From assembly GCA_951406725.2 (NCBI GenBank), contig OX597834.1:29202001-29266000 (forward strand): a DNA stretch of 64,000 bases. The letters are read 5' to 3'. The notes beneath the pieces were generated by a model. That model made no database searches. It was not told the DNA's origin and worked only from the letters and a program-made list of their open reading frames with translations. Below, piece by piece: positions 47,309-48,100 of this stretch. Each line of letters starts with the position of its first letter. The first letter of the stretch is position 1. The DNA is from Octopus vulgaris (taxonomy: Eukaryota). Made by a program: the position numbers and the translations under genes.

Positions 47309-47713
47309 CTATCCGTTTTCTTTAGGGGACCAAAAACGTAACAGAAATTTAGTCACATGTGGGCATGATCCGAAAAGTTCTGTCCTTGTATTTAGACATG
47401 TGGTAGGGTCTAAGCTGCTTTTCCAGATAAGCCATCTCTCCATGTCGCATAAACCGCACCTTCCGCTGCCGTTAGTATAGGGCTTACATCTGGCCAAAAT
47501 CTTCCATTGTATGTTATAATCGACACCTTTATCTCTTAAAGACCAAATATGATTGGATAATTGTGTCGCTTTTCTTTTGTTCCAGTGCCTAAAGCTCAAA
47601 GTGTGGTTATTGAACCTGGTCTTGAAATTACCCTCTGTCAGGCCCACGTATTTCTTCGTCAAAACGGTGTCTTTAGTGGTTATAGAGTTTACGGTAGCCT
47701 CATATATGATGCT
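47309..47713 (-). CDS. Mirror copy of the same GIY-YIG domain on the left arm
   Basis: ORF 47309..47848(-) is identical to 47561..48100(+) except SIIYE versus SLIYD at the hairpin centre. Confidence 0.85.
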   Translation of the reverse strand, partial: SIIYEATVNSITTKDTVLTKKYVGLTEGNFKTRFNNHTLSFRHWNKRKATQLSNHIWSLRDKGVDYNIQWKILARCKPYTNGSGRCGLCDMERWLIWKSSLDPTTCLNTRTELFGSCPHVTKFLLRFWSPKENG

Positions 47714-48100
47714 ACCGTAAACTCTATAACCACTAAAGACACCGTTTTGACGAAGAAATACGTGGGCCTGACAGAGGGTAATTTCAAGACCAGGTTCAAT
47801 AACCACACTTTGAGCTTTAGGCACTGGAACAAAAGAAAAGCGACACAATTATCCAATCATATTTGGTCTTTAAGAGATAAAGGTGTCGATTATAACATAC
47901 AATGGAAGATTTTGGCCAGATGTAAGCCCTATACTAACGGCAGCGGAAGGTGCGGTTTATGCGACATGGAGAGATGGCTTATCTGGAAAAGCAGCTTAGA
48001 CCCTACCACATGTCTAAATACAAGGACAGAACTTTTCGGATCATGCCCACATGTGACTAAATTTCTGTTACGTTTTTGGTCCCCTAAAGAAAACGGATAG
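47696..48100 (+). CDS. C-terminal GIY-YIG endonuclease domain of a PLE ORF (no RT present). The N-terminal ~45 aa of the listed ORF are antisense read-through of the left arm.
   Basis: SLIY...KKYVGLTEGNFKTRFNNH...LSNHIWSLR...WKIL...CGLCDMER...LNTRTELFGSCPH has the IY/YVG motifs, the conserved R and H, CxxC-x2-E, LN and CxH, with no stops. Confidence 0.85.
   Translation, partial: SLIYDATVNSITTKDTVLTKKYVGLTEGNFKTRFNNHTLSFRHWNKRKATQLSNHIWSLRDKGVDYNIQWKILARCKPYTNGSGRCGLCDMERWLIWKSSLDPTTCLNTRTELFGSCPHVTKFLLRFWSPKENG

Follow-up and report, generated by a model that had tools for sequence, protein, structure and literature searches.

The window (the whole 64-kb stretch of DNA that was analysed) contains at 47017-48392 an insertion that is identified by its sequence features as a 5'-truncated Hydra-clade Penelope-like retrotransposon together with an inverted copy of itself (Table 1). 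Only the 3' 688 nt of the element are present in each copy, encoding a C-terminal endonuclease with the R, H, E and N residues, which is followed by a stop and a 3' UTR; the reverse transcriptase, which in this clade has the RWK and DKT motifs and no IFD, lies outside the truncated copies. The truncation falls at the GIY motif, and the CxCX5C linker region, for which the homologue consensus is CNCRxKxxCP, is absent. With the Hydra clade as defined by Craig et al. 2021 (PMC8557442) the element shares a C-terminal GIY-YIG endonuclease that possesses the CxxC and CxH motifs (here CGLC and CPH) and no CCHH (translation compared with Fig. S2 of that paper), as well as a (TA)n target; where the clade has a 3' hammerhead, it carries a hammerhead-like motif with a variant core. 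The lack of CCHH in the endonuclease sets the element apart from Neptune and Poseidon, while this lack and the position of the stop, hammerhead-like motif and tail after the endonuclease, which is not N-terminal, set it apart from Naiad. The endonuclease has a weak match to Pfam PF01541 (E 0.003, below the curated cut-off), 1882 proteins match it at E ≤ 1e-10 with a best identity of 47%, and its look-alike protein clusters stand at 0.93-0.96. The nearest named family is Hydra-1_Obim, in whose row the string GSCPH makes its single appearance in the supplement to PMC8557442, a likeness that suggests a cephalopod host; a 19-nt probe and four peptide probes across the centre of the insertion had no match there, which marks the element as a different family, with a layout already known for the class.

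The hammerhead-like motif fits in stems I-III and in position, while its core reads CCGAAGA as against the canonical CUGANGA (by-eye comparison with a published table), and Rfam returned no matches at the gathering score and 90 at E ≤ 10, all of them generic hairpins or microsatellites and none a hammerhead. Cores starting with CCGA instead of CUGA are present in two different families of the window (48302-48352/47057-47107 and 51497-51526). The tail is 64 nt long, compared with the 30-40 nt stated for Penelope-like elements (PMC8557442), and is derived from the element, as its CTC...GAG motif recurs in the tails of other Hydra elements. These elements belong to a comparison set of 25 Hydra-element loci (L001-L025) from a contig scan, which represent other Hydra families from other hosts and consist of animal-type DNA within bacterial genome assemblies; the occurrence of animal retrotransposon DNA in several bacterial assemblies points to host contamination. 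The full tail motif, CTC[TC]-N6-22-T[TC]GAG-NN-C, has 27 hits compared with 1-9 in shuffled sequence, 14 of them 38-63 nt past a hammerhead and one more at 143 nt. It is found in the window at 48399-48422 (+), 51595 (+) and 51984 (-), and in L001, L005, L007, L008, L010, L011, L013, L014 and L021. The shared motif could be a protein-binding or RT start signal, and no description of it was found in the accessible portions of PMC8557442 and other related literature.

Table 1. Features of the insertion and its neighbours in the window, and resolved head-to-head junctions of related Hydra elements.
Feature	Position or locus	Strand	Details
(TA)n target, left flank	46975-47016		
Left 5'-truncated copy, without tail	47017-47704	-	Endonuclease, 3' UTR, hammerhead-like motif
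Left arm / right arm of inverted repeat	47017-47704 / 47705-48392		688 bp each; axis 47704/47705
Mirrored hammerhead-like motif	47057-47107	-	
Mirrored endonuclease frame	47309-47704	-	
18-nt quasi-palindrome at head-to-head junction	47696-47713		Mismatch 47699/47710; + SLIYDA, - SIIYEA
Right 5'-truncated copy, with tail	47705-48392	+	
GIY-YIG endonuclease open frame	47705-48100	+	IY...YVG, R, H, E, N, CxxC, CxH
Hammerhead-like motif	48302-48352	+	Hydra-type topology, variant core CCGAAGA
Tail, right copy only	48393-48456	+	64 nt; motif CTCT...TTGAG at 48399-48422
(TA)n-rich target, right flank	48457-48525		No target-site duplication readable
Third Hydra-type inverted insertion	51455-51655		Inner ends 51508/51539, 30-nt spacer, tail on right
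Second zero-spacer inverted repeat	51996-52083		Arms of 44 bp; from the 3' end of a different Hydra-type element
Junction	L018		2-nt microhomology
Junction	L013/5778		3-nt microhomology
Junction	L013/5056		2 inserted nt
Junction	L007		1 inserted or mismatched nt next to 3-nt overlap
Junction	L010/7211		3 inserted nt
Junction	L011/2092		4 inserted nt
Junction	L013/6229		2 inserted nt; by eye

Penelope-like elements regularly have a 5'-truncated inverted copy next to their 5' end and a tail on one side only (PMC8557442; PMC8969392), with such an inverted copy recorded for Penelope-13_HM (PMC8557442), and in the literature the way in which these repeats and tails arise is an open question (PMC8557442; PMC11167929). 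The insertion is ordinary for its class and its value is that of a test case, in which a junction within a conserved coding motif and a single marker mismatch allow the native copy to be asked for. Outward from the axis, the arms are complementary at 687 of 688 pairs; their sole mismatch (47699 C / 47710 T) lies at distance 6, as the initial annotation had described, and pairing is not broken again before distance 689. For a single mismatch placed randomly in 688 pairs, the probability of falling within 6 bp of the axis is 0.009 and within 9 bp 0.013. The sequence at 47696-47713 is AGCCTCATATATGATGCT, and the + frame passes through the axis as ...YGSLIYDATVNS..., with SLIYDA at the centre, again in agreement with that annotation, which had missed that the - strand is also in frame across the axis, as SIIYEATVNS.

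Near-perfect palindromes with no spacer are a familiar sequencing artefact, and a fold-back chimeric read arising in the library or the assembly could produce one. Such an origin is highly improbable in this case: the mirror ends exactly at the 3' end of the element and does not extend into the flanks, an element-type tail is present on one side and (TA)n on both, and the layout is the one described for such elements (PMC8557442) and recurs at 51455-51655 and 51996-52083.

The 64-kb window has no non-inverted copy of the element family, no protein above 52% identity appears among the database matches listed, and the protein family was used as a stand-in for a non-inverted copy. The homologues are approximately 40-50% identical to the element and not independent of one another; 171 of 266 carry the motif, under a pattern that demands C at position -7 and Y at 0 and allows a limited set of residues at -1 and +2. 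Amongst these 171, S is the commonest residue at -3 (98), and V (82), I (59) and L (28) are found at -2. The family match thus extends across the axis for three codons of the opposite arm but no further, because the window's residues beyond them are rare, with G at -4 occurring once and Y at -5 and V at -6 never. Scored against a homologue profile (built from 81 of 124 aligned homologues), the mirrored codons attain 5.7 bits as SLI and 7.0 bits as SII. When the axis was moved to each of 654 other positions along the endonuclease ORF, the mirrors reached the SLI score once and the SII score not at all, with the real codons attaining 5.7 bits at 468 of these positions. No site combining 9-bp arms with one mismatch or none was present in 15,113 nt of native Hydra sequence, nor was there a near-palindrome of the same type in the 747 nt of the element that are not mirrored.

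These scores have to be weighed against the possibility that there was no native palindrome, and that two copies joined flush at an arbitrary point gave a perfect mirror in which a later substitution or RT error made the mismatch, S-L-I being simply the reverse complement of the Y-E-A codons. The mirror of the Y-x-A codons at this boundary is indeed motif-like (x-[LV]-[IV]; SLV in L014) at 17 of 19 non-palindromic native sites in relatives, several of which are near-identical copies; such a likeness arises from the structure of the genetic code, and therefore the evidence is the position of the axis and not the residues. A native palindrome is also used at none of the seven resolved junctions in relatives (see below), and a last mismatch close to the axis could be what remains after conversion between the arms or polishing of the assembly. 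A flush join nonetheless has to accommodate three coincidences, namely an axis at the best or second-best scoring of 655 placements, a mismatch within 6 of 688 bp, and a zero offset of two 688-nt copies, compared with offsets of 144 to about 3300 nt between the long copies in relatives, and it is considered unlikely. A palindromic I|Y site is not a general property of Hydra elements, since the 19 native sites show 4-7 mismatches in 9 pairs and none of them has fewer than four. The claim of the initial annotation that the small hairpin pre-existed in the element is very probably correct, given the mirror null (1 and 0 of 654) and the mismatch position (p about 0.01), and the 18-nt near-palindrome appears to be native to the element and to mark the join with a probability of roughly 0.85-0.9.

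Which strand preserves the native reading can be approached through the residue after the Tyr. E is found at this position in seven of the 171 homologues and D in none, the same counts hold among 88 homologues dereplicated at 70%, and the best homologue match carries E; at -2, Ile (59) exceeds Leu (28). On these residues the native reading would be SIIYEA on the - strand, within the tail-less arm, by odds that the authors estimate at roughly ten to one after allowing for the distance and relatedness of the homologues, and the left copy is probably the one that reads natively through the centre. The earlier choice of SLIYDA as the native motif, the equivalent of GIY, is not supported by these counts.

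Junctions of the related Hydra elements provide a comparison for the join itself. Twelve distinct candidate junctions were tried and seven were resolved against an independent near-identical copy (six by script, L013/6229 by eye); L013/1303 and L015 had no independent copy, anchors failed at L003, L005 and L014, and L008 and L009, with no near-identical native copy, were excluded from the junction count. None of the seven resolved head-to-head junctions has a native palindrome, and the general rule proposed by the initial annotation, that inversion axes fall at short self-complementary sites, finds no support in this small sample of related elements from other hosts. Five of the seven possess 1-4 inserted nt, as in end joining, and offsets of 5-7 nt without microhomology are also present amongst the relatives. 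Of five clear cases, two (L008, L013/5056) have the tail attached to the longer copy and three (L013/5778, L010/7211 and 51508/51539 in the window) to the shorter, with L007, L011 and L013/6229 ambiguous. Arms are fully identical in L008 (758/758), L013/1303 (236/236) and L011 (68/68), while other arm pairs differ at 1/80, 1/102, 3/137, 3/225 and 4/67 positions, which fits either of the models discussed below; in seven other pairs none of the arm differences could be assigned to different source copies. L009:1-3787 consists of head-to-head Hydra copies with 1.5-kb arms of 92% identity and a fully open left frame. Of 73 scored substitutions between these arms 55 affect the third position of a codon, and the changed codons comprise 55 synonymous and 17 non-synonymous ones, suggesting that the arms derive from different active templates that diverged under selection before they were joined, unless the locus, a 3.8-kb contig that terminates within the repeat at both ends, is a chimera created by an assembly path switch or represents two separate insertions.

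For the insertion at 47017-48392, the explanation that is slightly preferred over snap-back, and is given an even chance, is that reverse transcription was primed on each of the target strands and that the two cDNAs then annealed at the native palindrome. A young Hydra-clade element would enter a (TA)n tract, where its endonuclease would nick both target strands, and reverse transcription would be primed on each strand, from a start site that includes the tail on the right and from an internal start site that omits it on the left. The resulting cDNAs, both antisense and identical, could pair with each other only at self-complementary element sequence and would anneal where the S-[IL]-I-Y-[ED]-A codons form the native 18-nt near-palindrome, after which overhangs would be trimmed and gaps filled, with the mismatch surviving. 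Two priming events with an intermolecular join have moderate support. The preference for two-strand priming exists because it covers a tail on either copy, a native reading in the tail-less copy, the arms of L009 and the inserted bases, and because it matches the in vitro behaviour of the PAc protein (PMC11167929). Against annealing of two cDNAs, the duplex must escape repair to keep the mismatch, which snap-back would keep by default, and near-zero offsets without microhomology (L013/5056, L003) resemble local fold-backs. A further 7-bp match past a 2-nt bulge in L013/5778 and a possible 5-nt microhomology in L009, judged by its M-K-N-I-P motif, also count against it.

The initial annotation had instead proposed intramolecular snap-back, in which the antisense strand folds back at the native near-palindrome and primes the sense strand, a plausible origin that is considered to have a lesser, though substantial, chance of being correct. 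In its first form a single tail-first cDNA has SLIYDA as the native sequence and its second strand stops 64 nt early and anneals to (TA)n; in a second form it is a tail-less cDNA that folds back, and the tail comes from a second, short cDNA made on the opposite target strand; and in a third an antisense RNA template primes itself, as proposed in PMC3846280. Snap-back explains the identical arms, here and in L008, L013/1303 and L011, as well as the 5-7 nt offsets without microhomology, it leaves room for a further priming event as the source of the tail, and there are precedents in the snap-back of cDNA recorded as a junction class for R2 proteins (PMC11371274) and in the palindromes at inverted Penelope junctions interpreted as self-priming (PMC3846280). 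The second strand cannot outrun its template, and a single snap-back must therefore begin on the tail-bearing side, which requires SLIYDA as native. The first form thus depends on a D after the Tyr, a residue with no occurrence in the 171 homologues, and fails in the three of five cases with the tail on the shorter copy. The 18-mer is predicted to fold into a 3+3 bp stem closed by a 4-nt loop, weak as a hairpin (-1.5 or -2.8 kcal/mol) with three pairs past the mismatch, compared with -12.7 / -15.3 kcal/mol for the homoduplex, a comparison that overstates the duplex in that a hairpin is unimolecular and has no concentration cost. Arms from different templates, as suggested for L009, could not be produced by snap-back, and at L021:4887-4917, a Hydra hairpin directly before the hammerhead core and cut by the locus end, the 1-nt spacer is too short for a loop, with the native context inferred.

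Both processes need self-complementarity at the join and either can leave an asymmetric centre, and arms without differences are expected from a single cDNA as well as from two cDNAs of one source. The sequence predicted by snap-back is here also the one predicted by annealing of two cDNAs; of the origin put forward by the initial annotation the self-complementary join is very probably right, whereas the centre does not single out snap-back.

Twin priming of L1 on one RNA gives an inversion without a duplicated 3' end. Both copies here contain the 3' end, and therefore two 3'-end primings or a fold-back are needed. For L1, twin priming and fold-backs have both been described (PMC11702581), and the likeness to two-strand priming is that two target-primed cDNAs are joined by microhomology or end joining. 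A published account of Penelope inversions by two-cDNA joining or twin priming was not found in the literature covered, which includes subscription journals incompletely. The closest described junctions are those of the inverted Penelope pLTRs of Adineta vaga (Arkhipova et al. 2013, PMC3846280), which are also head-to-head with junction palindromes (a 15-bp overlap, an 18-bp palindrome and a near-perfect 38-bp palindrome) and a one-sided tail, and for which self-priming on an antisense template was already proposed in 2013; in the accessible part of that study there was no test of whether the palindromes are native. In contrast to the pLTR junctions, the junction here is inside the endonuclease ORF, and nativeness can be tested with a protein profile. 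In vitro, the purified PAc protein of Poseidon nicks and extends both strands of an AT-rich target and starts reverse transcription at two sites, one at either boundary of the tail; the protein is predicted to form a dimer (Frangieh et al. 2024, PMC11167929). PAc comes from another clade, second-strand synthesis is untested in that work, and its accessible text holds no account of inverted copies. In the R2 snap-back junctions (PMC11371274), the 3' end of the cDNA primes on the cDNA, as in the snap-back considered here.

Taken across Penelope-like elements, the inverted copies and one-sided tails could tentatively be explained by a protein dimer that primes both strands, sometimes on two RNAs, with the cDNAs joining where they can pair; in the same proposal, which falls somewhat short of an even chance as a whole, native near-palindromes would be hot spots that yield zero-spacer hairpins. 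If this were true, junctions within ORFs would be readable by protein profiles, and arm pairs from different sources (as in L009) would provide a genome-wide fingerprint. Hairpins of this kind can also give rise to long double-stranded RNA and to errors in genome assembly.

The region from 47 to 52 kb is a local cluster of Hydra-type insertions in (TA)n tracts, consisting of a remnant and three hairpins. In the repeat at 51996-52083 the axis lies in hammerhead stem II by alignment, which is compatible with a native or a non-native centre, and a tail is found at ~51930-51995 on the - strand. The initial annotation had noted that this hairpin (axis 52039/52040) is centred on ttcgaa; the observation is accurate (44-bp perfect arms, no spacer), whereas its use as support is circular, because every zero-spacer inverted repeat has a palindromic centre by construction and the centre adds nothing without a native copy. 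The spacer of the insertion at 51455-51655 belongs to the tail-less copy because the hammerhead core there is on the - strand. An older inverted repeat at 51095-51255 (about 82% identical arms, a 41-nt spacer and a short near-palindrome at 51188-51205) is probably another Penelope-like 3' end, and degenerate remnants of Hydra-type endonucleases occur at 50337-50633 and 25169-25276. Elsewhere in the window there is a solitary hairpin in AT-rich DNA (44294-44332; perfect 18-bp stem, 3-nt loop), a reverse transcriptase fragment (617-1438, -; PF00078) and a fragment of a mariner transposase HTH (19224-19652, +; PF17906). Further, a dispersed repeat of ~430 nt is present across the window in more than 10 copies of 83-95% identity (e.g., 4255-4680, 6533-6992, 12288-12710, 59818-60273 and 61916-62344) and is probably a SINE-like family.
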